The notes beneath the pieces were generated by a model that saw only the letters and a program-made list of their open reading frames with translations, made no database searches and had not been told where the DNA came from. Both the position numbers and the translations under genes were made by a program. A DNA stretch of 64,000 nt. It comes from a virus. Positions 1 to 64,000 of the stretch are shown here, piece after piece. The stretch lies in IMG/VR virus record IMGVR_UViG_3300044632_000653; one strand, given 5' to 3'. Every line of letters starts with the position of its first letter. Positions within the stretch are counted from its first letter, which is position 1.

Positions 1-362
1 CCGCAGTTGAACTGAAACAGCATTCCCGAACTGTTGTTGGTGTTCTTCTTATAGGGGAACATTCGGTTGGACCCCGCCGTGATGTAGTTCTCCTCGCTGG
101 TGTACCAACTCTTGTCGTTGATGGTCATCGACTTGCAGGTGGTTGCGAGTCGGGCTACATCGGGGACGAACTCCATCCCGAGTGCCGAGCGAACACGCTC
201 GTTGGGGAAGATCATCACAAGCCATCGGTTGGCTGACATCCAACCCGTTTCCCGCAGCCGACCGTAGGCATAGTCCATGAAGGACGGCGCAGGGCTGTCC
301 TTGGATCCCTCTAGGAACCTTGCCCGTGACGAAAGGAAGTCTGTGCGGAAGTCGAGTGCCAT
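1..362 (-). CDS. Baseplate tail-tube initiator, gp54/gp19-like (partial, runs off the window start)
   Basis: Manually translated from ATG at 362: MALDFRTDF...GWMSANRWLVMIFP...LATTCKSMTI, a gp19/gp54-type N-terminal pattern; follows gp4-gp2 as in cyanophage-like T4 relatives; TAGATA 5 nt upstream. Confidence 0.6.
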   Translation of the reverse strand, partial: MALDFRTDFLSSRARFLEGSKDSPAPSFMDYAYGRLRETGWMSANRWLVMIFPNERVRSALGMEFVPDVARLATTCKSMTINDKSWYTSEENYITAGSNRMFPYKKNTNNSSGMLFQFNC

Positions 363-370
363 AGGAGTAT

Positions 371-967
371 CTATTTGGCTAACTTCCACACCTGTTCCCG
401 AGTCGCTCCTTGGAAGTCATCCATGGGGAAGAACGGAACCGTCTTCCACTCGGCAGACGAGATGAAGGCGATGTCGCTGACGATGTGGCTGTAGAGGTAA
501 CGCTTGATGCAGGGGCGGTAGGGCTTGAGTTTCTTGGTCGCCTTCAGTATCGGGTAGGTGACCCTGATGAGTGCCTTGTAGTTGTTGTAGACAGCCCAAT
601 TCGGGTCATCCACCAACTTGATGAGGTTGTTGAGGAAGGTAGCCCGAACGCTCGGCGGGATGTAGTGAAGGTTGAGACCTAGAAATCCCTTGGGCTTCGG
701 GTGGAGGATGATGACCACGGGGAACGCATCCCAAAACGGGAGTTCGTCTTGGGTCTTGGGGTCGTATGCGTAGAAGACCATCCTCCCAGGCGAGAGTTGG
801 TTCCTCTTGGTGATCGTCCTTGACGAGTCGATGAACGAGGACTGCCGCATCCCCGTCTTGATCTTGGAGAGGTTGGTGGCAAGCCATTTCGTCGCCTTCG
901 GGTCCTTGAGGCTCAGTCCCGAGCGACCGAAGTCCCGCACCACCTTTGCTGCCGCTTTCTTGGTCAT
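371..967 (-). CDS. gp2: DNA end protector protein (T4 gp2-like)
   Basis: PGRMVFYAYDPKT..LPFWDAFP..GFLGLNLHYIPP and PCIKRYL motifs; next to gp4. Confidence 0.9.
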   Translation of the reverse strand: MTKKAAAKVVRDFGRSGLSLKDPKATKWLATNLSKIKTGMRQSSFIDSSRTITKRNQLSPGRMVFYAYDPKTQDELPFWDAFPVVIILHPKPKGFLGLNLHYIPPSVRATFLNNLIKLVDDPNWAVYNNYKALIRVTYPILKATKKLKPYRPCIKRYLYSHIVSDIAFISSAEWKTVPFFPMDDFQGATREQVWKLAK

Positions 968-1461
968 GCCTTTGCCTTTCCGAAGATGTTTTCCTCAGTC
1001 AGGATGCGGAAACTCCAACCCCTGTCCTCGCAGTAGTCCTTAGCCGCAGACCACTTCGCCGAGTTGATCATCCAATTCCTGATCTCCGTGATCTTGCTCT
1101 TGGACACCCTCTTGGTGGTGGGTTGCTCGGGCTTCATCGTCTGCTTCTTGGGCTTCACCTCAATCAGGGACTCCTCCACGGTTCCATCGGGCTTCCTGAT
1201 CCGAACCCAAAAGTCCACGAAGTACCTGTGTCTCCTGCCGTCTAGCGGGGAGATGTAGGGCACGATCACTTCCTCGGATGACCACTCGACCACGGAGTCG
1301 TTCTCGTCGCAGAATGTCATAAACCTGCGCTCCCACAGAGAGCGGTAGAAGCACATGTTGGCATCCCCTTTGTACTTCTGCGGCTGCTTTGGCTTGAATT
1401 TTCCCTTGTAAGACTTGCCCGTGGCTATGGCAGATCCCTCCGCTTCCTTATGTAGCGGCAC
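964..1461 (-). CDS. gp4: Head completion nuclease (T4 gp4, TnsA-like PD-(D/E)xK); true start uncertain
   Basis: YKGKFKP..P.KYKGD, YRSLWE, WSSEE..PY.SP.D.R.HRYFVDF, LIEVKP motifs. Confidence 0.93.
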   Translation of the reverse strand: MPLHKEAEGSAIATGKSYKGKFKPKQPQKYKGDANMCFYRSLWERRFMTFCDENDSVVEWSSEEVIVPYISPLDGRRHRYFVDFWVRIRKPDGTVEESLIEVKPKKQTMKPEQPTTKRVSKSKITEIRNWMINSAKWSAAKDYCEDRGWSFRILTEENIFGKAKA

Positions 1462-1471
1462 TCGCTAAATA
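1449..1471. promoter_or_regulatory. Back-to-back T4-type late promoters (TACATA on minus at 1449-1454; TAAATA on plus at 1466-1471)
   Basis: Resemble the T4 late promoter TATAAATA; lie at the divergence point between gp4 and gp48. Confidence 0.7.
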
Positions 1472-1479
1472 CGATCACG

Positions 1480-2649
1480 ATGGCAAACGAATACAGCAGC
1501 GTGGGGACATTTGGGGACATTCGTGCTATTGAGGGCATGCTCCTCAATAAGTCGAGGTCTGCGTTTGAGCGTCGGCTCTACGAGCGTGGCAAGGATGTCC
1601 GAGACAGGAAGCACTACAAGTACCCTCTTGAGATCCTCAGCACTCCCGACCACATGAACGCTATGTGCATTGAGATATGGGACAACAATCCCGCATATCT
1701 CGCCACTAAGCGTGAGACATTCAAGCGTCTTGGCGAGAGTGCCGCCCGAGCGGTGGGTGCCTCGCAGCAGAACGCCCAAAATGGACAGGCGGCAGCCGAC
1801 ATCGGGGACATCGTGGGTGCTGGTATCCAAGGCGCAGCGGCTGCTGCGGGAGCCTTCGTCGGTTTGCTTTCGGATGCCTTCGTCGGAGGCAACCTACAAG
1901 GACAGGGCTCGGGAAGGGACTCCTACACAGAGGAACAGACGGGTCTTGCGGGTGGCACAGCCCCCGTCATGCACAGGATCTACCTGTACATGCCAACGAA
2001 CATGTCGTTCGGGTATGGATTTGAGTACGAGGATGCCAACATGAGCGGCATGGACATCCTCAAGTTGCCCAAGGCTTTGGCTCAAGGCAACGCCGAGGTG
2101 GCTAAGGACATAGGAAAGAAAATCGCAATGACCAATCTCAAGGTCCTTGACGATCTCGGCAGCAAGGTCGGTATCGAAGCAGGAACTCTCGGGAAGTTCT
2201 TCTCGGCGCAGCAGAGGCAGGTCATCAATCCCATGAACCTGCACATCTTCAAGGAGGTGAAGAGGCGTGAGTTCTCATTCGCATACACCTTCCTCCCGAA
2301 GAGCCGTGCGGAGATGCTCAACTGCCATGAGATCGTGAACATCCTCAAGTTCTTCGCTCACCCCAAGAGGTCCGAGGGCGAGGGAAGGTTCCTCGACTAC
2401 CCCGCAGAGTTTCAGATTTACTTCCTACAGGGCGACGGCAAGAACAACGCATACATGCCCTACATCTTCAAGTGTGCGCTGAAGGACATCAAGGTCTCCT
2501 ACGGCGAGGAAACCGTGTTCTCCACATTTGAGTCGGACGATTTCGGAGCATCTCCGACCAAGATGAAGTTGGATCTCACCTTCAGCGAACTTGAGATCCT
2601 GACCCGTGATAGGTTCGGCATCGATGTCGGCACCGTTCCGAGTGCATGA
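1480..2649 (+). CDS. gp48: Baseplate tail-tube cap (T4 gp48-like)
   Basis: IYLYMP, INP..HIFKEVKRREFSFAYTFLPKSRAE, YPAEFQI, LTFSELEILTR motifs; precedes gp53. Confidence 0.88.
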   Translation: MANEYSSVGTFGDIRAIEGMLLNKSRSAFERRLYERGKDVRDRKHYKYPLEILSTPDHMNAMCIEIWDNNPAYLATKRETFKRLGESAARAVGASQQNAQNGQAAADIGDIVGAGIQGAAAAAGAFVGLLSDAFVGGNLQGQGSGRDSYTEEQTGLAGGTAPVMHRIYLYMPTNMSFGYGFEYEDANMSGMDILKLPKALAQGNAEVAKDIGKKIAMTNLKVLDDLGSKVGIEAGTLGKFFSAQQRQVINPMNLHIFKEVKRREFSFAYTFLPKSRAEMLNCHEIVNILKFFAHPKRSEGEGRFLDYPAEFQIYFLQGDGKNNAYMPYIFKCALKDIKVSYGEETVFSTFESDDFGASPTKMKLDLTFSELEILTRDRFGIDVGTVPSA

Positions 2650-2657
2650 GGTAAAGC

Positions 2658-3566
2658 ATGGGATACTTCGATTTCATCCCGAGCGTGGCTTATCCGAATG
2701 ACGAAGGCGGCAGGACCATCGTCAAGGACATACTCGTCCGTGGCAAGATCATCGACGCTCTCCGTGAAGCCGCCTCGGCGGCACTTGAGTACACGGTCGA
2801 GGACGAGGAGAAGCCCGAGACCCTCGCATACAGGATCTATGGCAGAGCCGACTACCATTGGCTCATTCTTCTCTTCAACGAGATCCACGATCCATTCTTC
2901 TCTTGGCCGATGAGCATCAACGAGATGGAGAAGCACATGGAGGCTTCCTACTCGGGCAAGGCACTCTTCATCGACCCTGTTGGTCTTTGGGACTATGACA
3001 AGGAACTTCCCCTCGACAGGCGTGTCCCCCACTTCGCAAAGGGAGACCTGATCCAACAGAAGGATGTCTTGGGGTCGGTGGTGGCGACCGCCGAAGTGAT
3101 TTCATGGGACCCCAACCTGTACAAGGTCGTGGTGGATTCCGTCAGCGGCTCGTTCAGGCTTGTGGGGGAGGCGGCTAGGCATACGAGCGTGATCTCGGAC
3201 AGGACCGCCTTGACGAGGGACATCACCACGGTCAACTCCACGGGCAAGACGATCACCGTCCCGCTCGTCAGGATCACCGATGACAACAGGTATGCCTTGC
3301 AGCGGTTTGAGAACTCCTCGCAGGAGGAGATATCCCCTTGGTTCCGTGCCAAGGGCAACCCTACGCCGATCATCGAAAAGTATGCGCTAGGCAGGTCCGA
3401 GGTCTTCCCGATGGGGGATAACGAGGTGGGAGAGGACCTCGGTAACGCCACAATCGTGACCAACATAGAGAACGAGGAGAGGATCAACGATGCGAAGCGC
3501 ACGATCAAGGTCATGCGTCCCGAGTACATCGACTTGGTCTTGAGAGACTTCCGCAGTCTGTTCTGA
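2658..3566 (+). CDS. gp53: Baseplate wedge subunit (T4 gp53-like)
   Basis: MGYFDFIP..Y, LysM-like EKPETLAYRIYG...HWLILLFN.I.DP...WP, C-terminal E..NDAKRTIKV..PEY. Confidence 0.9.
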   Translation: MGYFDFIPSVAYPNDEGGRTIVKDILVRGKIIDALREAASAALEYTVEDEEKPETLAYRIYGRADYHWLILLFNEIHDPFFSWPMSINEMEKHMEASYSGKALFIDPVGLWDYDKELPLDRRVPHFAKGDLIQQKDVLGSVVATAEVISWDPNLYKVVVDSVSGSFRLVGEAARHTSVISDRTALTRDITTVNSTGKTITVPLVRITDDNRYALQRFENSSQEEISPWFRAKGNPTPIIEKYALGRSEVFPMGDNEVGEDLGNATIVTNIENEERINDAKRTIKVMRPEYIDLVLRDFRSLF

Positions 3567-3573
3567 GGAAACC

Positions 3574-8983: not shown

Positions 8984-8985
8984 GC

Positions 8986-31620: not shown

Positions 31621-32514
31621 ATGGCACTCAATCCGTACATCAGAGTCAACAGCAAGACCTATGTCCCCGAGCAGAGCCTCATCGATGAACTGACGGTCGA
31701 GGCGATCAAGATCTACGGACATGAGATGTACTACATCCCTAGGGAGTTGGTCACTAGGGACGATCTGTTCGGCGAGTCGAAGTACTCACGATTCGTCTCG
31801 TTCAAGATGATTGAGATGTACATGGATACCACCACCGCATTTGAGGGCGGTGACACCTTCACGAAGTTCGGGTTTGAGATCAGGGACAGCGTCAAGTTCA
31901 CGGTGTCCCGAAGGAGGTTCAAGAGGGAAACGGGCAAGGACAGGCCCCTTGAAGGAGACTTGCTATTCCTCCCGATCAGCAAGGGTCTCTTTGAGATCAA
32001 GTTCGTGGAGCATGAGAATCCCTTCTATCAGTTGGGCAAACTCTACTCCTTCCAACTGACATGCGAACTGTTCCAATACTCGGAGGAGGAGTTCGACACG
32101 GGAGTTCCCGAGATCGATGCCATCAACGAGGAAACGGGGTTCAAGGTCAATCTCGACTTGGGGGCGGTCTATGGAGGAGGAACTTTTGCAGAAGGCGACA
32201 GCGTATATCAATACGAGAATGGCTCTCCTACAGGACCAACTGCGGGAGCGTCTGCGAGGGCGGTGGTCTTCTCGTATGACCCATACACAGATCCGCTCCG
32301 AGTATCTCTTTCCGATGTTGTTGGTACTTGGATCTCGGAGACCTCCTCGGGCGCAACCGCCTACATAGCCAAAGCAAACAACACCGTATACGCCTCCATC
32401 GCCGCAAAGGATGACACGATGGGGATCTTGGACGAGGCGAAGAACGAAGCCATCCAAGAGGAGGCAGACGGGGTCTTCAACTTCGATGAGGAGAACCCGT
32501 TCGGGGATCCATGA
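31621..32514 (+). CDS. gp14: Neck protein
   Basis: EQ.LI..L..E.IKIYG...YY.PR, KFG.EIRD, RP.EGDL, FEIKFVEHE.PFYQLGK, F.E.NPFG. Confidence 0.95.
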   Translation: MALNPYIRVNSKTYVPEQSLIDELTVEAIKIYGHEMYYIPRELVTRDDLFGESKYSRFVSFKMIEMYMDTTTAFEGGDTFTKFGFEIRDSVKFTVSRRRFKRETGKDRPLEGDLLFLPISKGLFEIKFVEHENPFYQLGKLYSFQLTCELFQYSEEEFDTGVPEIDAINEETGFKVNLDLGAVYGGGTFAEGDSVYQYENGSPTGPTAGASARAVVFSYDPYTDPLRVSLSDVVGTWISETSSGATAYIAKANNTVYASIAAKDDTMGILDEAKNEAIQEEADGVFNFDEENPFGDP

Positions 32515-33369: not shown

Positions 33370-33854
33370 CGGGAGAAGGCGTGAACGACATCGACATGAA
33401 CATAGCGAAGACACTCGGCATAGATCCCCCCCATGCGCCCGTGCGCACGGACACGCCCGAGCCCGCACCCGAGCAGGAGATACTCCCCGCAAGGCAGGGC
33501 GGATACACCTCGCAGGATGCCGACAAGGACTATGCGGAGGTTCGCCGCAACCTCAAGGTGGTGATTGAGAAGTCCCAAGAAGCCATCGAAGGGATCATCG
33601 AACTCGCACAGGACAGCCAACAGCCCCGAGCCTACGAGGTGGTGGCGCAACTCATACAGTCGAACCTTGAGGCGAACACACGGCTCATGGACCTGCACCG
33701 CCGCATGAAGGACATCAAGCGGCAGGATGTGGTCAACAAGACCACGAATGTGACCAACAACTCGATCTATGTGGGCAGCACCGCAGACCTACAGAAGATG
33801 ATCCGTGACCAAAGGAAGGCTATGGATTCGGGGGAGGAGCCTTCCCATGAGTAG
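33366..33854 (+). CDS. gp16: Terminase small subunit
   Basis: DY..VR.NL...I.K...AI, PRAYEV...LI, NNSIYVGST.DLQK. Confidence 0.93.
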   Translation: MTGEGVNDIDMNIAKTLGIDPPHAPVRTDTPEPAPEQEILPARQGGYTSQDADKDYAEVRRNLKVVIEKSQEAIEGIIELAQDSQQPRAYEVVAQLIQSNLEANTRLMDLHRRMKDIKRQDVVNKTTNVTNNSIYVGSTADLQKMIRDQRKAMDSGEEPSHE

Positions 33855-35529
33855 CGACGGAACCTACATGGGCAACCCCCTCCTCAAGGGGGAGTATGTC
33901 CAACAGGAGTTCACCAAGGATCAACTCGCCGAGTACATCAGGTGTTCCGAGGATCCCGTTCACTTCATTGAGAACTATGTCAAGGTCGTGACCATCGATG
34001 CGGGACTCGTACCGTTCAAGATGTACGGGTGGCAGAGGGACATCGTCAGGTCCGTCTTCGACAATCGCTTCGTCATCTGCAAGATCCCCCGACAGAGCGG
34101 CAAGACAACCACCTTGGTGTCCTGCATCCTGCACCTCGTCCTGTTCAATCCCGACTACAAGGCTGCGATCCTCGCCAACAAACTGAAGACGGCGACCGAG
34201 ATCATGGACAGGGTCAAGATCGCCTACGAGAACCTCCCCAAGTGGCTACAGCAGGGAGTTCGGGAATGGAACAAGACCTCGGTCACCCTTGAGAACGGCT
34301 CCAAGATCGTCTGTTCCTCGACCTCGTCCTCCGCTGTCCGTGGCTCGGCGTATAACTTCCTCCTCCTAGACGAGTTCGCCTTCGTCCCCGATCAAATCGC
34401 AGAGCAGTTCTTCGCCTCGGTGTATCCGACGATCACCTCGGGTAAGACGAGCAAGACGGTCATCGTCTCCACCCCGAACGGGCTGAACCTGTTCTACAAG
34501 ATGTGGCAGAACGCAAAGAACGGCAAGAGCGAGTTCAAGCCCGTCGATGCCCATTGGTGGCAGGTCCCAGGTCGTGACGATAGGTTCAAGGAAACCACGA
34601 TCAGGAACACCTCCGAGAGGCAATGGCTCTCGGAGTACGAGTGCGAGTTCCTCGGGTCGCAGGAGACCTTGGTCAAGGCATCCAAGATCGCAGCCCTTGC
34701 CTTCACCACCCCGATCCTTGAGACCGAGGAGGGGATGACGGTCTATGAGAATCCAATAAAGGGGCACATCTATGCCGCCACGGTGGACTCCTCACGGTCC
34801 ATCGGGCAGGACTACAACACGATGACGGTGATCGATGCGACCACCGTTCCGTACAAGGTGGTCTGCAAGTTCCGTTCCAACACCATTCCCGTCCCGATCT
34901 TCCCCGAGGTCATCAAGCAGGTGGGGAGCAAGTACAACGAGGCGTATGTCCTTGTCGAGATCAACGACACGGGGCAGCAGGTCGCCGACATCCTCAAGGA
35001 TGACTTGGAGTACGAGAATGTCATCTCCATCTCCATCAAGGGCAAGAAGGGTCAGAGGGTCGGCGAGGGATTCGGCGGGGCTAGGGTCTATAACGGTGTC
35101 AAGATGTCGGCTCAGGTCAAGAAGGTGGGATGCCTCATCCTCAAGGAGATGATCGAATCCGACAAGTTGATCCTCAACGACTTTGACATCATCTCGGAAC
35201 TCTCGACCTACATCCTCAAGGCGGGTTCATACGAGGCGACGGAGGGATACCACGACGATCTTGTGGCGACCCTCGTCATGTTCGCATGGCTCACCACGCA
35301 GGAGTACTTCAAGGACTTGGTCAACCTAGATGTCAGGAAGCGGGTCTTTGAGGAAAAAATCAAGAAACTGGAGGAGGACATGGTCCCCTTCGGATTCATG
35401 GACATCGGCACGGACGAGATGGACGAGGCTGTCAAGGCTCTGTCTAGCGAGCCCAACATGGCTCCGAAGCCTTCCAAGCGAAACAGGTCTTGGATGGACG
35501 ATGCCGACGAGATCCTCGGTCAGCCTTGA
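33847..35529 (+). CDS. gp17: Terminase large subunit
   Basis: Y.GNPLLK, PRQSGKTT (Walker A), LLDEFAF (Walker B), VSTPNG.N.FY, HDDLV..L. Confidence 0.97.
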   Translation: MSSDGTYMGNPLLKGEYVQQEFTKDQLAEYIRCSEDPVHFIENYVKVVTIDAGLVPFKMYGWQRDIVRSVFDNRFVICKIPRQSGKTTTLVSCILHLVLFNPDYKAAILANKLKTATEIMDRVKIAYENLPKWLQQGVREWNKTSVTLENGSKIVCSSTSSSAVRGSAYNFLLLDEFAFVPDQIAEQFFASVYPTITSGKTSKTVIVSTPNGLNLFYKMWQNAKNGKSEFKPVDAHWWQVPGRDDRFKETTIRNTSERQWLSEYECEFLGSQETLVKASKIAALAFTTPILETEEGMTVYENPIKGHIYAATVDSSRSIGQDYNTMTVIDATTVPYKVVCKFRSNTIPVPIFPEVIKQVGSKYNEAYVLVEINDTGQQVADILKDDLEYENVISISIKGKKGQRVGEGFGGARVYNGVKMSAQVKKVGCLILKEMIESDKLILNDFDIISELSTYILKAGSYEATEGYHDDLVATLVMFAWLTTQEYFKDLVNLDVRKRVFEEKIKKLEEDMVPFGFMDIGTDEMDEAVKALSSEPNMAPKPSKRNRSWMDDADEILGQP

Positions 35530-37513: not shown

Positions 37514-38140
37514 ATGTCACAGTTCAGCATCGATGCGTTCCGTGCGAACCTCATCAACGGTCTTGCGAGGAACAACCTGTTCCTCGTCCAAGGCAACTTC
37601 CCAGGCGGCGGAACCAACGCCATCCAAGGTGCGGCTGCGGTTGCAGGTGCCCTTTTCGGCGGCGCAGTCGCAGGTGCGATCACCAATGTCGCAGCGGCTG
37701 TAGGCGGCGGAAACCCGAGTGCGCAGATTTCGTTCCTCTGCAAGTCCTCAAAGATTCCGTCCTCGACCATCGCCACCAACCAAGCGTTCTACATGGGTCG
37801 CCCGTTCAAGTATCCTGGCGACAAGACCTTCAGCGATTGGGGCATGAGCGTCTACAACGACGGCACCTACGGTCTCCGCAAGTCCTTTGAGGCTTGGATG
37901 AACCTGATGAACACCAACAGGACCAACATCGGTCCCAACGGTGTCAGCGGTTACATGACCGATTGGACCGTCACCCCGCTCACCCGTGAAGGCAATCCCA
38001 TCGCCCGATACAAGTTGATCGGTTGTTGGCCTACCACCATCGCAGAAACCACTCTCGACATGGCGGCGCAGTCCGAGCCTTCGACCTTCGATGTGACGAT
38101 TGCGTATCAGTACTTTGAAGTCGAAGGCGTGACCACCTGA
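37514..38140 (+). CDS. gp19: Tail tube protein
   Basis: GLAR.NLF.V, FLCK...IP, GR..K.PGD.TF.DW...VYND, P.......LD, F.VT..YQY. Confidence 0.93.
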   Translation: MSQFSIDAFRANLINGLARNNLFLVQGNFPGGGTNAIQGAAAVAGALFGGAVAGAITNVAAAVGGGNPSAQISFLCKSSKIPSSTIATNQAFYMGRPFKYPGDKTFSDWGMSVYNDGTYGLRKSFEAWMNLMNTNRTNIGPNGVSGYMTDWTVTPLTREGNPIARYKLIGCWPTTIAETTLDMAAQSEPSTFDVTIAYQYFEVEGVTT

Positions 38141-38168: not shown

Positions 38169-39671
38169 ATGGCACTCTTTGGCTTTGACTTAGGCCGCAG
38201 CAAGAAACAGAAGAAGCAGGACAAGGCTCTGAAGTCGTTTGTCGTTCCGACATTCGATGACGGAGCCATTCCTGTTGAAGCGGGTGGCTTCTACGGTCAG
38301 TATGTCGATCTCGACGGCACCGTCCGCAACGACTTTGAACTCACGATGAAGTACCGTGAGATGGCGCAGGACCCGATTGTCGAGGTCGCAATCGATGACA
38401 TCGTCAACGAGTCCATCATCATGGGCGAGAAGAAGTCTCCCGTGAAGATCCTCCTCGACAAACTTGACGAAAGCGACGGCATCAAGCAGAAGATCCACGA
38501 CGAGTTCAGGAACCTCATCAGGGTCATGCAGTTTGAGACCAAGGGAGCCGAGATCTTCCGCCGATGGTATGTGGACGGGAAGATCTTCTTCCACATCATC
38601 ATCGATGAGGAGAACCCGCAGAAGGGCATCCTTGAACTCCGCTATGTCGATCCGATGAACATTCAGAAGATCCGTGAGTACACCAAGGAGACCCTCAAGA
38701 ACGGCACGAAGATCATCACGGGGTACAAGGACTTCTACCTGTACAACAAGGACAATCCCCGTGCAGGTGGCAACGCTGCGGGAATCAAGATCAGCGAGGA
38801 TGCCATCGCATTCTGCTCGTCGGGTCTCATGGACAGCCGCTACAAGCGCACCGTGGGCTTCCTCCACAAGTCGATCAAGCCGCTGAACCAACTGCGGATG
38901 CTTGAGGATGCCATCGTCATCTACCGTATCTCCCGTGCGCCCGAGAGGCGTATCTTCTACATCGATGTCGGCAACCTGCCCAAGACCAAGGCAGAGCAGT
39001 ATGTCAAGGACCTGATGAACCGATACCGCAATCGCCTCGTCTACGATGCGAACACGGGAGAGGTCAGGGATGACAAGAAGTTCATGTCCATGCTTGAGGA
39101 CTATTGGCTTCCCCGCCGTGAAGGTAGCCGTGGTACCGAGATCACCACCCTACAGGGAGGTCAGAACCTCGGCGAACTCACCGATGTCATTTATTTTCAG
39201 AAGAAGGTCTACAGGGCGTTGTCCGTCCCCGCTAGCCGCCTCGACCAAGACAAGCAGTTCATGCTCGGTCGCAGCACGGAGATCACCCGTGACGAGGTGA
39301 GGTTCACCAAGTTCGTCCACAGGCTCCGCACCAAGTTCAGCGAACTGTTTTTCGACATCCTTCGGAAGCAACTGATCCTCAAGAAGGTGATTACCGCCGA
39401 CGAATGGCCCGAGATGAAGGAGTCGATCTACTTCGACTTCCTCAAGGACAACCTGTTCACCGAACTCAAGAACGCCGAACTGCGGAAGCAGCAGGTCGAG
39501 GAGTTGGGAAACATCAAACCATACATAGGTAAGTACTACAGCCATGAGTGGGTCCGCAGGAATGTCCTCGGTTTCTCCGAGTCCGACATCAAGGAAATGG
39601 ACCGTGAGATTGAGAAGGAACGCAACGCAGGAAAGATCGAACCCGACAACTCGCAGTTCGGTCTCGCCTAA
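38169..39671 (+). CDS. gp20: Portal protein
   Basis: IFRRWYVDG, NQLRMLEDAIVIYRISRAPERRIFYIDVGNLPK.KAEQY, MLEDYWLPRREG.RGTEITTL.GG. Confidence 0.98.
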   Translation: MALFGFDLGRSKKQKKQDKALKSFVVPTFDDGAIPVEAGGFYGQYVDLDGTVRNDFELTMKYREMAQDPIVEVAIDDIVNESIIMGEKKSPVKILLDKLDESDGIKQKIHDEFRNLIRVMQFETKGAEIFRRWYVDGKIFFHIIIDEENPQKGILELRYVDPMNIQKIREYTKETLKNGTKIITGYKDFYLYNKDNPRAGGNAAGIKISEDAIAFCSSGLMDSRYKRTVGFLHKSIKPLNQLRMLEDAIVIYRISRAPERRIFYIDVGNLPKTKAEQYVKDLMNRYRNRLVYDANTGEVRDDKKFMSMLEDYWLPRREGSRGTEITTLQGGQNLGELTDVIYFQKKVYRALSVPASRLDQDKQFMLGRSTEITRDEVRFTKFVHRLRTKFSELFFDILRKQLILKKVITADEWPEMKESIYFDFLKDNLFTELKNAELRKQQVEELGNIKPYIGKYYSHEWVRRNVLGFSESDIKEMDREIEKERNAGKIEPDNSQFGLA

Positions 39672-44515: not shown

Positions 44516-45877
44516 ATGGAACTGACGATTTCCGAGGCCCTTCAGAAGAAGTGGCAACCCATCCTTGAACACGCTGACTTGCAGCCGATCAAGGACCCGT
44601 ACCGCAAGGCGGTTACGACCATGCTCCTTGAGAATCAGGAGCAGTACCTCCGTGAGGCTGCGCCCACCAACTTCAGCGGTGCTGCCACCATTGGTCAGGA
44701 AAGCGGCGGCAATGTGGCTCGTTGGGACCCGATCCTGATCAGCCTCGTTCGTCGTGCGATGCCGAACCTCATCGCCTACGACATCTGCGGCGTTCAGCCG
44801 ATGAGCGGTCCTACGGGACTTATCTTCGCCATGCGCAGCCGCTACATCAATCAGACGGGTCCTGAGGCTCTCTACCAAGAGGCTGACACCGCTTTCGGTG
44901 GCTCGGGCTCGACGGGTGCGACGGCTCAAGGCAACTACAACACCGATCCGTTTGAGATCAGCGGTGTGGATCCGTTCGGCTCGGGCACCCTCGCTCAGGC
45001 GACGGGCGTGAAGGGCACTAAGGGCTTCAGCACCTACGGCGGTGAAGCCCTCGGCGACTCGGCGAACAATCCGTTCCCGCAGATGGCATTCAGCATTGAG
45101 AAGACCACGGTCGAAGCGAAGACCCGTGCCCTCAAGGCTGAGTACACGATGGAACTCGCACAGGATCTCAAGGCGATCCACGGTCTCGACGCTGAGACGG
45201 AACTCGCCAACATCCTGTCGAGCGAAATCCTCGCCGAGATCAACCGTGAGGTCGTTCGTGTCATCTACGCCAACGCCAAGTTGGGTGCGAAGAGCGGCAC
45301 GACCCAAACCACGGGTGTCTTCGACCTCAATGTCGATTCCAACGGTCGTTGGAGCGTTGAGAAGTTCAAGGGTCTCCTCTTCCAGATTGAGCGTGAGTGC
45401 AATCAGATCGCCAAGGAAACCCGCCGTGGCAAGGGCAACTTCATCGTCTGCTCGTCGGATGTCGCCTCGGCTCTGTCGATGGCGGGTGTCCTCGACTACG
45501 CCCCTGCCCTCAGCACGAACCTCAATGTGGATGACACGGGCAACACCTTCGCAGGTGTCCTCAACGGCAAGTTGCGTGTGTACATCGATCCGTACTCGTC
45601 CATGACCACCTCGCATGACTTCTTCATGGCGGGTTACAAGGGCTCGTCGGCTTACGATGCGGGTATGTTCTACTGCCCGTATGTGCCGCTGCAAATGGTC
45701 CGTGCGGTCGGTGAGCAGTCCTTCCAGCCGAAGATCGGCTTCAAGACTCGCTACGGCTTGGTCAACAATCCGTTTGCGACGATCAACAACGGTTTGTCGG
45801 TGGCTGACCCCTACGACACCAATGCGACCCGCAAGAACATCTACTACCGCATCGTCAAGGTCACGAACCTCTTCTGA
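44516..45877 (+). CDS. gp23: Major capsid protein
   Basis: DPILISLVRRAMPNLIAYDICGVQPMSGPTGLIFAMRSRY, RALKAEYT.ELAQDLKAIHGLDAE.EL.NILS.EI, FQPKIGFKTRYG. Confidence 0.99.
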   Translation: MELTISEALQKKWQPILEHADLQPIKDPYRKAVTTMLLENQEQYLREAAPTNFSGAATIGQESGGNVARWDPILISLVRRAMPNLIAYDICGVQPMSGPTGLIFAMRSRYINQTGPEALYQEADTAFGGSGSTGATAQGNYNTDPFEISGVDPFGSGTLAQATGVKGTKGFSTYGGEALGDSANNPFPQMAFSIEKTTVEAKTRALKAEYTMELAQDLKAIHGLDAETELANILSSEILAEINREVVRVIYANAKLGAKSGTTQTTGVFDLNVDSNGRWSVEKFKGLLFQIERECNQIAKETRRGKGNFIVCSSDVASALSMAGVLDYAPALSTNLNVDDTGNTFAGVLNGKLRVYIDPYSSMTTSHDFFMAGYKGSSAYDAGMFYCPYVPLQMVRAVGEQSFQPKIGFKTRYGLVNNPFATINNGLSVADPYDTNATRKNIYYRIVKVTNLF

Positions 45878-49939: not shown

Positions 49940-50986
49940 TCAGTAGATGATGCCGCCTGTACTGACCATGCAATTATCGGACACAAACATCGCCTGTGCA
50001 AGAGTCTTCATGTTGTACGAAGGTTGCCATCCGAGGATGAGACGGGCTCGGGTCGAGTCGCCGAGGAGATATGGCACCTCGTTCGGACGGAACAGCCTCG
50101 GGTCGATGATGACATACTTTTCCCATGAGCCGAGATCCGCAGCGGAGAACACCTCGTCAAGGAACTCACGGACGGTGTATGTCTCTCCCGTAGCGATCAC
50201 ATAGTCGCTCGGAATGTCCTGTTGGAGCATGAGCCACATGGCATGCACATAGTCCGCTGCATGTCCCCAATCACGCTTTGCGTCGAGGTTGCCAAGACGG
50301 AGGTTCCTCTGAAGCCCGTGCTTGATCCTCGCAGCCGCCATCGTGATCTTGCGGGTGACGAAGGTCTCCCCACGGCGTGGACTCTCATGGTTGAACAGGA
50401 TGCCGCATGAGGCATGGATTCCATAAGCCTTGCGGTATGTCTGCACCATCTGATGGGCATACACCTTGGCGACGGCATACGGCGAGACGGGTTGCAGCGG
50501 GGACTGTTCGTTGAATCCCATCGGGCTCGTCGGGACCGAGTCGCCGAACATCTCCGAGGATGACGCTTGATACAGCCTCGTCTGCGGGGAGATCGTCCTG
50601 ATGGCGTTGAGGATGTTCAGGGTGCCGTTGCAGATGCCGTCCGAGGTGTACTCGGGGAGTTCAAACGAGACTGCGACATGGCTCTGTGCGGCGAGGTTGT
50701 AGACCTCGTCAACCTCGTACTCCATGAGGATGTTGGAGATGCAGGATCCGTCGTGCAGGTCGTAGTACTTGAGGATGAACCTCGGATCGTTCGTGAGGTG
50801 ATCGATCCTTCCCGTCGAGATGGTGGATGTCCTCCGCTTCAAGCCGATGACGGTGTAGCCCTTGCGGAGGAGGAGTTCGCTGAGGTACGAGCCGTCCTGA
50901 CCGTTCACGCCCGTGATGACGGCGGTCTTTCCGTTCGGGACGGGATCGGCGTTACTTGCGGATGGAGTCGTAGTTGCTTCTGACAT
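49940..50986 (-). CDS. gmd: GDP-mannose 4,6-dehydratase
   Basis: ITGVNGQDGSYLSELLL.KGY, YNLAAQSHVAVSF, YQASSSEMFG, P.SPYAVAK, GILFNHESPRRGETFVTRKIT, LGNLDAKRDWGHA.DYV. Confidence 0.98.
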   Translation of the reverse strand: MSEATTTPSASNADPVPNGKTAVITGVNGQDGSYLSELLLRKGYTVIGLKRRTSTISTGRIDHLTNDPRFILKYYDLHDGSCISNILMEYEVDEVYNLAAQSHVAVSFELPEYTSDGICNGTLNILNAIRTISPQTRLYQASSSEMFGDSVPTSPMGFNEQSPLQPVSPYAVAKVYAHQMVQTYRKAYGIHASCGILFNHESPRRGETFVTRKITMAAARIKHGLQRNLRLGNLDAKRDWGHAADYVHAMWLMLQQDIPSDYVIATGETYTVREFLDEVFSAADLGSWEKYVIIDPRLFRPNEVPYLLGDSTRARLILGWQPSYNMKTLAQAMFVSDNCMVSTGGIIY

Positions 50987-51872
50987 GGTCGCAGGTTTCC
51001 TTGATGGCTGTCTTGATGTCGGTGAAATTGAAGTCGGGGTACGCCGCTCGGAACCTTGAGTTGTCCGTGGGCTTTCGGTATATGCCTTCGGGCATGTCCG
51101 TTTGGAAGACGATCTCGCCGTCGAATTCCATGGCTTCGGCGATCATCCAAACGATGTCCTTGATCCTGTACTCCTGAGACGGAGATACGATCATCTCTGT
51201 CGGCACGGACTCACGGTTGTCGGAGTGGATCGTGGTCAGGGCTCTTGCGATGTCGGGTGCGTACACGAATTCACGCAACGCATCTCCCGAACCCCACACG
51301 GCAAAGGGCGTTCTTTCCCTCTTGGCGAGGTAGCACTTGTGGATGAGGCTCGGGATGACATGCCCGTGCATGCAGTTGTAGTTGTCGTTCTTGCCGAAGA
51401 CATTGCAGGGGATCACGCATCGGACCTGCATGCTGCGGTCCTTGCGGAGGCATCGGGCACCGACCTCAAGCATCCTCTTGGCATAGGCATAGCCGAAGTT
51501 GGTGTGGTGCGGTTCGCCGAGGTGGAGGCTGTCCTCCGTGAGCGGATACTGAACCTGCGTGGGGAAGACGCAGGTCGAGAGTACGAATGTTGCGGAGTTC
51601 AGCAAAAACTCCCCGCAGACACGCATCACATTGGCGTTGATGGAGAGGTTGTTGCTGAAGAACTCAAAGGAGTGGCGGTCGTTCGCACGGACACCTCCGA
51701 CCGTGGCGGCAAGGTGGATGACCTCGCTGATCTCGTTGTCGGCGACGAACTCACGCAGTTGCCTGTAGTCGAGGAGATTGAGTTCCCTTGATGTGGGGGC
51801 GAGTGCGTATCCCGAAGGAATCTCGCTGCCGATCAGCCCGTGACCTCCCGTGATGAGGACATGCCTGTTCAT
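50952..51872 (-). CDS. fcl: GDP-L-fucose synthase (GDP-4-keto-6-deoxymannose epimerase/reductase)
   Basis: TGGHGLIGS, HLAA.VGG..AN, STCVFP, N.GYAYAKR, P.N.FG..DN......HVIP.LI.K, WGSG...REF.Y. Confidence 0.95.
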   Translation of the reverse strand: MNRHVLITGGHGLIGSEIPSGYALAPTSRELNLLDYRQLREFVADNEISEVIHLAATVGGVRANDRHSFEFFSNNLSINANVMRVCGEFLLNSATFVLSTCVFPTQVQYPLTEDSLHLGEPHHTNFGYAYAKRMLEVGARCLRKDRSMQVRCVIPCNVFGKNDNYNCMHGHVIPSLIHKCYLAKRERTPFAVWGSGDALREFVYAPDIARALTTIHSDNRESVPTEMIVSPSQEYRIKDIVWMIAEAMEFDGEIVFQTDMPEGIYRKPTDNSRFRAAYPDFNFTDIKTAIKETCDHVRSNYDSIRK

Positions 51873-59502: not shown

Positions 59503-59835
59503 TTATTCAAGACCGAGTTCACGGTCGAGTTTGGCGATCCGCTTCATCGCCTCCTGCGCTTCCTTGCGGAACGGCACCTTCGCCCTACGCTTGTCCCATG
59601 TGTCTGGATGCTGACTCTTGAACACGCCTTCGATCCATGAAAGCGGGAACTGTTGTTCGATGTCCCTCGTCTGATCGGGATTCTCCTCGTCGGGAATCTC
59701 GCCGTAGAGCCAACAGTCATTCTTCTCGGGAACGAGAACTCGTATCTCGTAGATGCCGCTGTCCTCGCCGTCTTCGATGTAGACCTTGTCGCCGTGCCTG
59801 AGTCTTGTGGTGGTTCGGGGTTTCTTTGCCATCAT
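59503..59835 (-). CDS. Hypothetical protein (possible SH3/KOW-like fold)
   Basis: Coupled operon member. Confidence 0.6.
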   Translation of the reverse strand: MMAKKPRTTTRLRHGDKVYIEDGEDSGIYEIRVLVPEKNDCWLYGEIPDEENPDQTRDIEQQFPLSWIEGVFKSQHPDTWDKRRAKVPFRKEAQEAMKRIAKLDRELGLE

Positions 59836-60209: not shown

Positions 60210-60577
60210 GGCTCTTCTCCTTCGTCCAAGAGTCCCTTCATCTTGGAGACGATCTTGGTGAGACGCTCGACCTCGGTGGTCAACTTCACATTCAACGCAC
60301 CGACAGGCTCACAGGTCGTGCAGCAACCCTCGTAGCCTTCCTTGAACTGATCGATCTTCTTTTCCAAGTCGTAGATCATGTATGCCATATGGGTGAACAC
60401 TTCGCTCTCGTCCTTCAGCACACTCTTGAGACGAGAGACCTCCTCCTCAAGAAGAGCGTTCTGTTCCTTGAGGGAGTCGATGGTCTTGTCCTTCAGCACG
60501 ATGGCGGTGATCCCGATTCGGGTCGCTTCCTCGACCATCCGCAGTTGGTCGATGGCTTCTTTCGTTGGTTCGTTCAC
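60206..60577 (-). CDS. Coiled-coil protein with CCxxC motif
   Basis: GYEGCCTTCEPVG; GTGA coupling. Confidence 0.6.
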   Translation of the reverse strand: MNEPTKEAIDQLRMVEEATRIGITAIVLKDKTIDSLKEQNALLEEEVSRLKSVLKDESEVFTHMAYMIYDLEKKIDQFKEGYEGCCTTCEPVGALNVKLTTEVERLTKIVSKMKGLLDEGEEP

Positions 60578-60957
60578 TTGCCGTCCTCCTCGTAGCAATT
60601 CCATCCTCTTTCCGCAGCGATCTGTTGTTCGGTGTCGATGCTTTCGTTAGCAATTTGCCGACAATACATTCGCCTCGCCTCGTTACGCTCTGCGGTCAGG
60701 CGTTCGATCTCCGCTTCAAGATTCTCGGCTCCGATTCGATAATCCTCCTGTTCGGAGAGCAGAGTTCGTTCCCGTGACAATGCGTTGTCCAGTTCTCCGA
60801 TTGTCCCCTCTAACCGAAACATGAGATCCTCAATCTCGTCTGCGGCTTCTACGAGGAGCCTGTGTGTCGGTGGTGTACCGAACAGGCGAAGATAGTTCGC
60901 AGCATCCTTGACTTCCACAAGCAGATCCTTGGGATCCTTGAACTTGATCTCGCTCAC
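60574..60957 (-). CDS. Coiled-coil hypothetical phage protein
   Basis: EAADEIE..., ERNEARR..C...RGWNC motifs. Confidence 0.65.
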   Translation of the reverse strand: MSEIKFKDPKDLLVEVKDAANYLRLFGTPPTHRLLVEAADEIEDLMFRLEGTIGELDNALSRERTLLSEQEDYRIGAENLEAEIERLTAERNEARRMYCRQIANESIDTEQQIAAERGWNCYEEDGK

Positions 60958-61085
60958 TTGGTGTCCTTTCCGTCTTCAAGTCGCTCTTCGATCTCGTCTA
61001 GCATGAGTTCAAGCCTTCCCAAGTACCATCCGAGGAGGAACGAGCATCCTGCAACCATAAGCACGACGGCAACGAGTACCGTCAT
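60954..61085 (-). CDS. Small single-TM protein (43 aa)
   Basis: MTVLVAVVLMVAGCSFLLGWYLGR...; fills the gap with overlaps at both ends. Confidence 0.55.
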   Translation of the reverse strand: MTVLVAVVLMVAGCSFLLGWYLGRLELMLDEIEERLEDGKDTK

Positions 61086-61531
61086 CGCTTCCCCGCTTCA
61101 AGGATGGGGAGCCCTGCCTCGGTGGGCACATAGATCACGCTGTTGGAGCCTGACTCCAAGTTCTTGATCCATTGCCACCTCAAGTACGCCTCGTTGTCCT
61201 TGAGGCTTTGTCCGATGATGGCGTTGGCTTCAGCCACGCCTTTCGCTCTCTCAACCTCGGCGGCGGCGAGTGCCTTCGCCGACTGTAGTTCCGCTTCGGC
61301 TTCCAAGATGGAGATGCGCCGATTCTGCTCGGCTTGTGCGTACTCGGCTTCGCCCCGCATCTGTGCAGCCCAAACATCGTAGCGGGGCTTGATGTAGGCG
61401 CAGCCGCCGATGCCGCCGCCGAGGACGATCAGGACGATCAGCACCCAAATGCCGATTCCCAACACGCTCCCGTAGTCAAACTTGTTCCTGACCTTTGAGT
61501 TGTCCTGATTGTTGCTTCCATAGTATGACAT
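61082..61531 (-). CDS. Membrane-anchored SPFH/prohibitin-like coiled-coil protein
   Basis: TM helix; P.Y.VW.....G.A..A.A..R.I...EA.A, A.G.A.AN.I...SL....YL.W.WI, IYVPTEA.LPILEA. Confidence 0.8.
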   Translation of the reverse strand: MSYYGSNNQDNSKVRNKFDYGSVLGIGIWVLIVLIVLGGGIGGCAYIKPRYDVWAAQMRGEAEYAQAEQNRRISILEAEAELQSAKALAAAEVERAKGVAEANAIIGQSLKDNEAYLRWQWIKNLESGSNSVIYVPTEAGLPILEAGKR

Positions 61532-61535
61532 GGCT

Positions 61536-62033
61536 TCAGTTTCCCATTCCTAGTAGGCGAAGTAGTCGCCACTTTTCCTGATCGATGATCTGACGAATTC
61601 TTGTTGAGGAGACACCGAGGGTCTTTGCGGCGCATGTCTGCGTCCTGCCTTCATAGAGGCATTGGCAGATGACCCTGAAGTCTTTGTGACCGATCCTGTC
61701 GAAGTTGATTTCCTCTTGGTATTCCTGCTCATGGTAAGTGGTTGACTGAAACACAAGCGATTCAGGGCTCTTGAACTCTACCTTTACTCGTTCCTTGTTT
61801 CTTCCATACCAATTACGCATGTCTTCGATCACCAAGAACTTCGCCCTGCGTGAGGTGTATTCGTGAGACATGCCACGCTCCTCATGGTAAAGCCATGCCT
61901 CCGTGGCATACTCCCGTGCTGTCTTGCCGTTGAATGTCTTCTTTCCACCTCTACCCAAGACCTTCGCCGCCGCACTAGCAGCCCTGCCGATGATTTCATT
62001 CGGATCTTGAGTCAGATCCTGATCAATACTCAT
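61536..62033 (-). CDS. Sigma-like protein with FliA-type region-4 HTH
   Basis: RAKFLVIEDMR (region 2-like); YEGRTQTCAAKTLGVSSTRIRQI. Confidence 0.6.
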   Translation of the reverse strand: MSIDQDLTQDPNEIIGRAASAAAKVLGRGGKKTFNGKTAREYATEAWLYHEERGMSHEYTSRRAKFLVIEDMRNWYGRNKERVKVEFKSPESLVFQSTTYHEQEYQEEINFDRIGHKDFRVICQCLYEGRTQTCAAKTLGVSSTRIRQIIDQEKWRLLRLLGMGN

Positions 62034-62057
62034 GTAAAGCGACCTCCGAGGTTAGGA

Positions 62058-62084
62058 GTATCGACCTGATTTCGCCATCTTTCA
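62058..62084 (-). promoter_or_regulatory. Sigma28-like promoter TGAA-N15-GTCGATAC upstream of the sigma-like gene
   Basis: 15-nt spacer; SD GGAGGT follows. Confidence 0.45.
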
Positions 62085-62119
62085 GCGTAGGTCGAGACTA
62101 TTCTCGGAGGTCGTTCTGT

Positions 62120-62395
62120 TCAGAGGGTCTGCTTGAACACGCCGACGAAGTCGCCACGGTGGTGGCTGTTGACGAGCCAATCCTTCTTGTACCTGTGGAT
62201 GAAGGCGATCACATCCTCACGGCTGACCTTCTTCTGATCTAACAGGTAGAACTCCCTTGCCATGTGCGGGGCATCGGCAGATCCATACTTTCTCGCCTCC
62301 CGAAGGATGCCGTGGGCGATGTCGATGATCAACTGATCCTTCTCGCCCTCGGTGAGTTCGTGCGGGAGTTTCGGTGGCTTGTAAGACACGATCAT
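62120..62395 (-). CDS. Hypothetical protein
   Basis: SD AAGGAG. Confidence 0.6.
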   Translation of the reverse strand: MIVSYKPPKLPHELTEGEKDQLIIDIAHGILREARKYGSADAPHMAREFYLLDQKKVSREDVIAFIHRYKKDWLVNSHHRGDFVGVFKQTL

Positions 62396-62412
62396 GTCCG
62401 CTCCTTGTTGGT

Positions 62413-62907
62413 TCAGAGGGTCTGCCCGAACTGCTGAACCCAACGGGTCTTGCTGTCGAGGGACAGGATGTACTGCTTGTTCGCCTTGATGAAGGCGATC
62501 AGCGCAGCCTTCGTCTCGGTCCACCGCTCACGGCGGTCGGTGATGTCGAGGGTGTACAACTCGTAGGCGAGGTCGGGCGTGTTCGCATCACGGGTGTCCT
62601 TGGCGTTCCGCAGGACCTCGTAGGCGATGTTGAAGAGGAGGACGGGCTCGTTCACCACGGGCGGCTTCGCCACGGTCGGGGTGACGGTCGGCGCAGTCTT
62701 CTTCTTGGCGAAGAGACGGACGGGCGGCTCGTAGGGCTCGGCAGGAACGACCTCGGTGTACCGCTCGGTGGTCGGGGTCAGCCGTCCCACGGGGCGGGAA
62801 GTCTGCGGCTGCGGCTCGGGCTGCGCCGAGGTTCGGGAGCGGAGACCCTCCTCAAGGTTACGGGCGGTGAGGGATGCGGCGGGTGCAGCGGTGTTCTTGT
62901 TGCTCAT
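62413..62907 (-). CDS. Hypothetical early protein with Pro/Thr-rich N-terminal half
   Basis: SD AGGAG; promoter TTGACA-N17-TATCTT at 62965-62993. Confidence 0.65.
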   Translation of the reverse strand: MSNKNTAAPAASLTARNLEEGLRSRTSAQPEPQPQTSRPVGRLTPTTERYTEVVPAEPYEPPVRLFAKKKTAPTVTPTVAKPPVVNEPVLLFNIAYEVLRNAKDTRDANTPDLAYELYTLDITDRRERWTETKAALIAFIKANKQYILSLDSKTRWVQQFGQTL

Positions 62908-62989
62908 GGTGTGTGTCTCCTGTGTTCCTCTTGCTTGCGTTTCGTGGGTTGATCCCACACGGCAAAGATACCTTTTCTTTGATGGTGTG

Positions 62990-63517
62990 TCAAGCCCCCG
63001 TGACAACTTTCACGGCGGCGACATTCACCTTGGCGAGGACATTCTTGATGTCCTTCGCCAACTGCTGCTTGGTTCGGGCGGAAGCCTCCAACCCATCGAA
63101 GTACCGCTTCGTCCACTTGGTGTGGGTCTCGGCGTTGTCCCGTTGGCGGCTTGCGGCAGCGAGGAGCGAGTCGGCTTCGGCAATGAGAGCCTCGGCGTAG
63201 GCGGCGGCGTTAGCGGTGCCGACCATGTTGACCCAATAGCGGAGGCAAGCCTCCCGCCACTCACGGTTCCACAGTTCCCGTTGGAGGTAGTGGTCCTGCT
63301 TGACGAACTTGTCAACCCATGCCTTCTGCTTCACGGACCATCGTCCGACCTGACGCAGGAGGGAGGCGGCGAACTCGTTGCCTCGGTTCGCCCGTCTCTT
63401 GAGGGAGCAGGTCGCCGTAGCCTCGTAGGAGGTGTCAATCCCATGATCGGCTAGGGTCCCCGTAAACCTCGGGGCGGGGAGGACTTTGAGGATGTCGGTG
63501 TTCACGGTCGGAGTCAC
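62990..63517 (-). CDS. Hypothetical early protein
   Basis: SD AAGGAG before GTG; promoter TTGACA-N17-TATCTT at 63537-63565; FA.SL..Q...WS.KQ.AW motif. Confidence 0.65.
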   Translation of the reverse strand: MTPTVNTDILKVLPAPRFTGTLADHGIDTSYEATATCSLKRRANRGNEFAASLLRQVGRWSVKQKAWVDKFVKQDHYLQRELWNREWREACLRYWVNMVGTANAAAYAEALIAEADSLLAAASRQRDNAETHTKWTKRYFDGLEASARTKQQLAKDIKNVLAKVNVAAVKVVTGA

Positions 63518-63577
63518 GGTGTTCTCCTTCACAAGAAAGATACGATACCAAACCTCCCGTGTCAAGACCAATCATGC

Positions 63578-63634
63578 AAAAACGAACTCGGCTCGGGACA
63601 AGTCACCGAGCCGAGGTCGCATGGGGGAAAAGAT
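63578..63634 (-). ncRNA. Candidate small RNA B (about 57 nt; seed ATCTTTTCCCCCATGCG plus terminator)
   Basis: Own promoter TTGACA-N17-TAATCT at 63641-63669; hairpin CTCGGCTCGG..CCGAGCCGAG then T5; no ORF. Confidence 0.6.
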
Positions 63635-63689
63635 GCAGGAAGATTACGAACCCTTTGATCCCCTGTCAAGAGGGTCCGTGGAATTTTCG

Positions 63690-63878
63690 TCATTTCGCTT
63701 GATCAGCCCGAATCACCTTGACCGACAGACGCTCGACCTTCAGTTGAGCCGCTTGGAGGAGTGGAGTGACCAAGATCGTCTCATAGACGGAGAGGGTCTT
63801 GAGACGCTCCATGAGCCTGTTGCGGTCGGCGACGGCGTTGTCGAGTTGCTGCTTGATGTTCAGTTCGTCGTTCGGCAT
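63690..63878 (-). CDS. Small coiled-coil early protein
   Basis: SD AAGGGG; promoter TTGACC-N17-TATTCT at 63898-63926. Confidence 0.6.
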   Translation of the reverse strand: MPNDELNIKQQLDNAVADRNRLMERLKTLSVYETILVTPLLQAAQLKVERLSVKVIRADQAK

Positions 63879-64000
63879 GGCTTCCCCTTTCAGCACAAGA
63901 ATAGCGGACGGAAGGCGGCAGGTCAAGGGGCTTCTTCTACATACCTGCATGTTGACGCTCAAGCACCCGTTGGAGGTCGGCTCGGTCCTTCAGTCGATCA

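Follow-up and report, generated by a model that had tools for sequence, protein, structure and literature searches.

Here we examine an extreme shortage of short sequence words in a 64,000-nucleotide stretch of viral DNA, IMG/VR record IMGVR_UViG_3300044632_000653, which in its whole length is referred to as the window. By its Pfam and PHROG matches the window (64 kb, 56.8% GC) is the virion or structural module of a T4-like myovirus, in which genes for a gp23 capsid protein, a gp20 portal, a T4-type terminase, a sheath and gp5, gp6 and gp8 baseplate proteins occur together, accompanied by those for a gp5-type spike, a scaffold protein, a gp2-like DNA end protector and head-closure and tail-tube-cap proteins. 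It is the terminase, taken with the other genes of the module, that identifies the element as a T4-like myovirus, and the source phage has a genome of about 170-190 kb. The capsid protein, which served as the query for fetching relatives and as the basis of a tree, is 60-63% identical to the capsids of Methylophilales phage Melnitz, pelagimyophages and cyanomyophages, so that there is no close cultured phage; uncultured relatives in IMG/VR reach 83-93% capsid identity and one of these, G002, lies on a 168-kb contig.

Counted over both strands of the whole window, ACGT, AGCT, CCGG and CGCG are each entirely absent, against Markov expectations of 243, 153, 376 and 269 copies respectively, and GGCC occurs 6 times where 262 copies would be expected. 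The four absences had been noticed by eye in the original prediction, made from the letters of the window, and exact counts bear them out; however, that prediction listed GGCC at three positions only (31943, 38193 and 44536) and missed three others (2905, 38028 and 39406). A void that it did not list is that of TTAA, with no copy against 8.4 (Markov) or 139 (base composition) expected, and since the Markov figure is so low TTAA is the weakest of the avoided tetramers (P = 2e-4). The suspected depletion of CCAG/CTGG is real, with 63 copies against 374 (Markov). Other tetramers described as common are indeed so, their counts being near Markov expectation (GATC 558/611, GTAC 207/241, CATG 326/405 and CTAG 64/92 observed/expected, to which TCGA at 436/604 can be added), and as a group GATC, TCGA, CATG, GTAC, CTAG, TGCA and GCGC stand at 0.55-0.91 of expectation.

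The depletion persists when the proteins and the codon usage of each gene are held constant. Using a null model in which synonymous codons were permuted within each of 45 confident genes (52,194 nt, 300 shuffles), 180 copies of ACGT, 175 of AGCT, 243 of CCGG, 242 of CGCG and 60 of TTAA would be expected where none is found, together with 214 of GGCC against 6 observed and 414 of CCAG/CTGG against 54. The corresponding z values run from -9 (TTAA) to -25 and none of the 300 shuffles came near the observed counts, so the refuting outcome named in the original prediction, counts close to expectation after codon-preserving shuffling, did not arise. About 1,470 sites are missing from the coding sequence, or roughly one per 36 nt. 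Across all genes of the window, words that carry TAA over a codon junction (CTTA, GTTA, GTAA, ATAA, CTAA and ATTA) are also 2-5 fold below the codon-shuffle expectation. These were not taken as a restriction signal because T-ending codons, which serve mostly to break sites, inflate that expectation; the shortage probably arises because such codons are kept for places where they disrupt a site, in addition to a general shortage of TpA, and may also include some avoidance of late-promoter-like sequences.

How the sites are avoided can be read from the codons. The original prediction described a set of rules by which codon choice switches wherever a site would otherwise form, and every one of these rules is reproduced in the codon counts. 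Thus the C-ending codons GAC, AAC, TAC and CAC (Asp, Asn, Tyr and His) are used 0 times in 139 before GTN, against 70-86% C-ending use elsewhere; leucine after AAG, GAG or CAG is never CTN (0/47) and is TTG in 46 of the 47 cases; and glutamine after NNC is CAA in 94 of 98. CCG does not occur before G (0/238), nor does CGC (0/297), and GGC is likewise shunned before C. Before GAG the codons ATC, CTC and TTC (Ile, Leu and Phe) are used once in 103 opportunities, and GTC for valine in 38 of 62.

The six residual copies of GGCC (Table 1) are consistent with selection that has been pushed to its limit. Trp-Pro is the one dipeptide that is impossible to write without GGCC, and it accounts for three of the six; of the three that could be removed by a synonymous change, two lie close to a gene start, no more than 25 nt into the portal gene and the capsid gene respectively. 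Moreover, Trp-Pro itself occurs 3 times where 9.1 would be expected (P = 0.02), and selection therefore extends to the protein level, with this dipeptide thinned out.

Table 1. Principal genes, the candidate nuclease reading frame and the residual GGCC sites of the window.
Feature	Position	Strand	Evidence or context
Large terminase, T4 type	33805..35529	+	Pfam Terminase_6N 3.3e-23, Terminase_6C 5.3e-13
Portal protein, T4 gp20 type	38169..39671	+	Pfam Portal_T4 6.6e-177
Major capsid protein, T4 gp23 type	44516..45877	+	Pfam Gp23 1.1e-149
Candidate nuclease ORF, 406 aa	54872..56140	-	Invariant D...E-C-K motif; 11 homologues
Residual GGCC	2905..2908	+	TGG-CCG (Trp-Pro), no synonymous escape
Residual GGCC	31943..31946	+	AGG-CCC (Arg-Pro), avoidable by synonymous change
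Residual GGCC	38028..38031	+	TGG-CCT (Trp-Pro), unavoidable
Residual GGCC	38193..38196	+	GGC-CGC (Gly-Arg), 24 nt into portal gene, avoidable
Residual GGCC	39406..39409	+	TGG-CCC (Trp-Pro), portal gene, unavoidable
Residual GGCC	44536..44539	+	GAG-GCC (Glu-Ala), 20 nt into major capsid gene, avoidable

Longer words were assessed with a second layer of null model, in which the codon shuffle was run as a Markov chain barred from creating the six tetramers, so that each longer word could be judged on its own. Under this constrained shuffle about 15 five- and six-letter words are found at 0-1 copies where 13-82 would be expected, specifically CASTG, GACGAC, HTCGAG, GTCGAC, GRCGYC, RGCGCY, CACGAG, CGATCG, GWGCWC, GCACGC, GCAGGC, CGTACG, TCATGA, TTCGAA and CTGCAG. 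The degenerate words stand on particular members: HTCGAG on the purged ATCGAG, TTCGAG and CTCGAG, with GTCGAG over-used at 129 copies; GRCGYC on GACGCC and GGCGCC; RGCGCY on AGCGCC, AGCGCT and GGCGCC; and GWGCWC on GAGCAC and GTGCAC. The few surviving copies are scattered, rather than clustered in one gene. Taken together, the avoided set comprises six 4-bp palindromes, about nine 6-bp palindromes, the degenerate words GRCGYC, RGCGCY, GWGCWC and CASTG, and the non-palindromic words GACGAC, CACGAG, HTCGAG, GCACGC, GCAGGC and CCAG, which, counted conservatively, amounts to more than 20 separate specificities. The avoided words take the form of restriction recognition sequences, that is palindromes, degenerate palindromes and words resembling Type IIS sites. 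Most correspond to the sites of classical Type II enzymes, namely AluI, MaeII, HpaII, FnuDII, HaeIII, MseI, SalI, XhoI, PvuI, PstI, BspHI, AcyI, HaeII, HgiAI, TspRI and BssSI.

The same habit is found in related phages, with a choice of words that partly differs. The nearest record, G001 (14.5 kb), has the same voids as the window. In G002 (168 kb, 93% complete, 51% GC) the avoidance can be seen genome-wide, with no copy of ACGT (419 expected), AGCT (415), CCGG (559) or CASTG (159), and most of the 6-mers avoided in the window are avoided there as well. G002 tolerates CGCG (504 copies), TTAA, TTCGAA and TCATGA, and it has private avoidances of its own, including GGWCC (51/221), TGCGCA, GAGCCC, ACCTGC, TCGCGA, CCGCGG and others. 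Every one-base extension of CCAG is depleted in the window; in G002 (L081-L089) the surviving copies of CCAG are mostly CCAGT (162 of 244, with 5 of CCAGA and 14 of CCAGC), and its avoidance is better described by CCAGV. When 34 orthologous gene pairs of the window and G002 were compared (68% amino-acid identity), the 137 aligned positions at which G002 has CGCG showed it in the window at none, and at 71 of these the two phages encode identical amino acids by different codons (CGC-GAG in one and CGT-GAG in the other, for instance). Mirror recoding is seen in the orthologous pairs at the private words of G002, and silent recoding has thus occurred in both directions.

In the capsid tree the window groups with 17 other contigs (bootstrap 85), and all 18 members, which range from 39 to 57% GC, are entirely without ACGT and AGCT, whereas both tetramers are at normal levels in the sister pair of the clade (L017 and L018). 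The voids of CCGG, CGCG, GGCC, TCGA and CASTG appear and vanish within the 18-member clade, so that the avoided set differs between related phages, as would be expected from strain-variable restriction-modification (R-M) sets. More distant low-GC T4-like contigs bear other voids, of GATC, CATG, TCGA and ACGT. Other T4-like contigs have voids of their own, with TCGA at 0/33 in IMG/VR contig 3300023174_000629 (L011), TCGA at 1/23 and CGCG at 0/18 in L028, and CATG at 0/32, GATC at 5/42, TCGA at 1/16 and ACGT at 0/19 in L045. Tetramer purging is therefore widespread in this phage family and the window stands at the extreme of a common habit.

The DNA of this phage had been predicted to be probably not hypermodified. 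No methyltransferase was found among the 40 ORFs of the window scanned against Pfam and PHROG, and G002 gave no match to the methyltransferase families PF01555, PF00145, PF02086 and PF02384 (N4/N6, C5, D12/Dam and N6_Mtase) or to PF00303, the thymidylate synthase and dCMP hydroxymethylase family. The absence of these families from the G002 sequence, and of a methyltransferase from the 40 window ORFs scanned, would fit plain, unmodified DNA, in line with the prediction. Matches of G002 to the PADLOC models 'REase_MTase_I/IIG' were discounted, as there is no N6_Mtase domain behind them; they are probably helicase-type matches. G002 lacks psbA, and a cyanophage identity was set aside. It also carries a transfer-messenger RNA (tmRNA) gene (L088:1090-1432, with the tag ANKQTRRYALAA), which lies among 11 clustered tRNA genes, including Leu-CAA (reading TTG), Gln-TTG (reading CAA), Arg-TCT and Ile-TAT. 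Such a set of tRNAs would also be expected of a phage with a lower GC content than its host.

From about 48.9 kb onwards the window has genes on the minus strand, for a GDP-mannose 4,6-dehydratase, an epimerase, helix-turn-helix proteins and a protein with a weak dockerin match; the dehydratase and a second epimerase/reductase make up a gmd/fcl-like pair (49940-51872, minus strand). Also on this strand is the candidate nuclease ORF of Table 1, whose family (12 members, all uncultured) has D64, E80 and K82 invariant, and whose protein opens with a leader of the T4-like capsid-targeting type (MKDFLSHLHE). The ORF has no Pfam or PHROG match, its AlphaFold2 model is poor (pLDDT 57.7) and a Foldseek search against the PDB gave no match at E<=0.001. 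It has no homologue in G002, which has most of the window's avoided words. The ORF, which may encode a packaged nuclease, is not counted as part of the shared avoidance and is not used as support for it.

The original prediction also held that the missing words would fingerprint the host methylome, and suggested Planctomycetota for comparison. Samples of 20 kb per genome were drawn from 20 Planctomycetota genomes, and that of G245 (2.9 Mb, 67% GC) was free of ACGT. Over 420 kb of G245, ACGT occurs 33 times against 1,245 expected (0.03) and AGCT 387 times against 977, and these are the two most depleted 4-mers of that genome as well as the two core voids of the phage clade. Of the 36 genomes of the G245 lineage for which 10 kb or more was sampled, 9 show ACGT or AGCT at no more than 0.35 of the expected count, among them G308 (ACGT 0/72, AGCT 4/44) and G335 (ACGT 5/56, plus CCGG 30/130). 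Such depletion was seen in no genome of a set of 20 from Verrucomicrobiota and Pseudomonadota (Fisher P = 0.019), nor at any of 80 short loci representing many phyla (Fisher P = 3e-6). These data suggest a cellular rather than a phage origin of the ACGT/AGCT pressure, and make the G245 lineage a candidate host on circumstantial grounds. The idea of a host fingerprint is thus partly supported, through the two core words; none of the other words avoided by the phage is strongly depleted in G245 (ratios 0.48-1.29).

Other routes to the host were tried and discarded. The best bacterial matches of the gmd product are 52-60% identical and come from many phyla, with Planctomycetota barely at the top, and were uninformative; the dockerin-type and unknown proteins, compared with the ESM Atlas, scored 0.80-0.89, below the threshold for trust, with a weak Planctomycetota lean; and the tmRNA of G002 matched 77 of 301 Planctomycetota genomes through its universal 27-nt 3' end only. 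As to G245 itself, one of its C5 methyltransferase genes lies in a locus (L233:3578-7911, equivalent to C1:1759578-1763911) alongside a ParB-fused N4/N6 methyltransferase, a tyrosine integrase and a 1,860-aa TrwB/HerA-like ATPase, which looks like an integrative element carrying methyltransferases without a recognisable endonuclease. Its second C5 methyltransferase gene is solitary. G245 has no orthologue of gmd, and five named Planctomycetota MAGs proved not to belong to its relatives.

We propose that the window records the avoidance of restriction sites by a phage whose DNA is unmodified and which meets many host restriction enzymes, and consider this very probable. Long-term selection against many short words follows from the shuffles, the codon switching and the reciprocal recoding of orthologues, and to this extent the original prediction, which spoke of selection by multiple host restriction systems or by a nuclease of the phage, stands. 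That host restriction enzymes would be the selective agent is suggested by the form of the words, by how sharply they switch on and off, by the differences in the avoided set from one close relative to the next and by the absence of the methyltransferase families searched. The mechanism would be a simple one, in which a virulent T4-like phage packages ordinary, unmethylated and unmodified DNA and, over a long time, copies of the words cut by the endonucleases of the host population that can be lost are lost, mostly by synonymous substitution. Once the sites were gone there would be nothing to cut, and neither a methyltransferase nor base modification would be needed. Several points weigh against this proposal. 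No restriction enzyme of matching specificity was identified; in G245 the neighbourhoods of the two C5 methyltransferases contain no recognisable endonuclease, and in 41 genomes of its lineage, compared with positions 24,001-64,000 of the window and with 7 candidates per genome scored, there was no spacer-like or other DNA match between host and phage, the sole match being the gmd gene at 66-77%. The non-palindromic avoided words need Type IIS-like enzymes or another cause, and they count against the proposal because a survey of phages reports little or no avoidance of such words (Rusinov et al., 2018; PMC6286503). The absence of ACGT and AGCT from all 18 clade members at 39-57% GC would require that two restriction specificities be conserved to an unusual degree among the hosts infected, and the searches for the four methyltransferase families and PF00303 were made on a relative, G002.

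The constancy of ACGT and AGCT in the clade, at any GC content and while the other voids vary, could instead reflect a conserved phage gene, namely one or more nucleases, at least for these two words, that shred host DNA and spare the phage's own because the sites are absent from it. Such a reading would also agree with the lack of methyltransferases of the families searched in G002, and the window does have an ORF with an invariant D..ExK motif. However, a separate nuclease would be needed for each of more than 20 specificities, G002 keeps the core voids without having the D..ExK ORF, and the model of this ORF matched no nuclease fold. Moreover, among the best 25 of 91 PADLOC families matched by 127 ORFs of G002 there are only generic ATPase/helicase-type matches and no Type II endonuclease, and a bacterial lineage purged of ACGT and AGCT is easier to explain by a cellular enzyme. 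We therefore regard this part of the original prediction as unsupported and improbable. Quite improbable, too, is that the phage avoids the targets of host methyltransferases, which are often orphans, and so escapes methylation-dependent (Type IV or IIM) enzymes in its next host. This would predict the same words, so that sequence cannot by itself separate it from cleavage of unmodified DNA, and C5 methyltransferases with no evident partner endonuclease do occur in genomes of the candidate host lineage. Nevertheless, the sites of modification-dependent enzymes are reported to be only weakly avoided, an effect ascribed to their coinciding in part with those of Type II enzymes (Rusinov et al., 2018; PMC6286503), and a methylation-dependent enzyme in other cells does not explain why the chromosomes of the lineage are purged of ACGT too.

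Selection might be dispensed with altogether if cytosines in the sites were methylated during each infection and the words then decayed by deamination of 5-methylcytosine. The commonest replacements are indeed transition neighbours, with ACAT/ATGT, CGCA/TGCG, CCGA/TCGG and AACT/AGTT the most enriched 4-mers, but mutation pressure alone would leave some sites at equilibrium rather than 0 of about 250. Transversions and double changes are also frequent among the replacements (CGC-G to AGG-G, or ACC-GG to ACG-GG), TTAA and TCATGA have no or few cytosines, and words without a methylatable CpG behave alike, all of which makes mutational decay very unlikely. That the voids are an artefact of sequencing or assembly, such as systematic miscalls at methylated motifs, is hardly credible, given that nothing was found in its favour, that the reading frames are intact, that amino acids are conserved where codons differ and that the same voids are present in independent assemblies from other samples (G001, L001-L016, L019 and G002).

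Avoidance of restriction sites on unmodified DNA, then, places the window among known cases, in that it is a known phage counter-defence in an unusually thorough form and not a new mechanism. Strong site elimination is documented for T4-like lytic phages, in a survey according to which sites of Type IIG, I and III are hardly avoided at all (Rusinov et al., 2018; PMC6286503). Like the phages of that survey, the window has short, mostly palindromic words brought near to zero in a non-temperate double-stranded DNA phage, more strongly than in bacteria and with no need of methylation. Unlike them, it has lost about 15 longer words in addition to five to six tetramers, at about one site per 36 nt, and is purged of several non-palindromic words. 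Whole-clade absence of a tetramer is also on record, with AGCT absent from A-clade pandoraviruses and GCGC from five enterobacterial phages of 345-359 kb (Poirot et al., 2019; bioRxiv 10.1101/712018). There, as here, a tetramer (AGCT included) is wholly absent across a viral clade, tracks phylogeny and is replaced by random synonymous alternatives; however, those cases concern one word each, and the window is without five or six together. The pandoravirus case is unexplained, with no bacterial R-M context, whereas a phage and classical Type II words fit restriction.

Cultured T4-like phages of Kyanoviridae type and others share the virion module with the window, at a capsid identity of about 60%, and in these the same tendency is slight by comparison. 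In Methylophilales phage Melnitz CGCG is at 0/25 and GATC at 15/178, in Stenotrophomonas phage DLP_6 GGCC is at 0/139, and in Synechococcus phage S-SRM01 AGCT is at 21/94, so that each has 0-2 purged tetramers against five to six, plus CCAG, in the window.

That about 1 in 36 coding positions has been recoded shows how far silent-site selection can reach into the codon usage of a large phage. The layered voids may be taken as a readable record of the restriction repertoire that the clade has met, in which two core words are constant and others come and go. Less standard are the fully purged non-palindromic words, including ACCTGC in G002, and the purging of two tetramers throughout a clade at any GC content. 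The match of these core words to the G245 lineage gives a concrete and testable host hypothesis for a phage group without a cultured member. It is possible, if doubtful, that the whole T4-like clade infects this Planctomycetota lineage and that the ACGT and AGCT voids are a scar shared by phage and host, left by ancient ACGT- and AGCT-cutting activities so harsh, or so poorly matched by methylation, that the bacteria purged these words from their own chromosomes as well. Were this true, the clade would be a first T4-like phage group for that lineage, and patterns of purged words could be used to assign hosts to uncultured phages.

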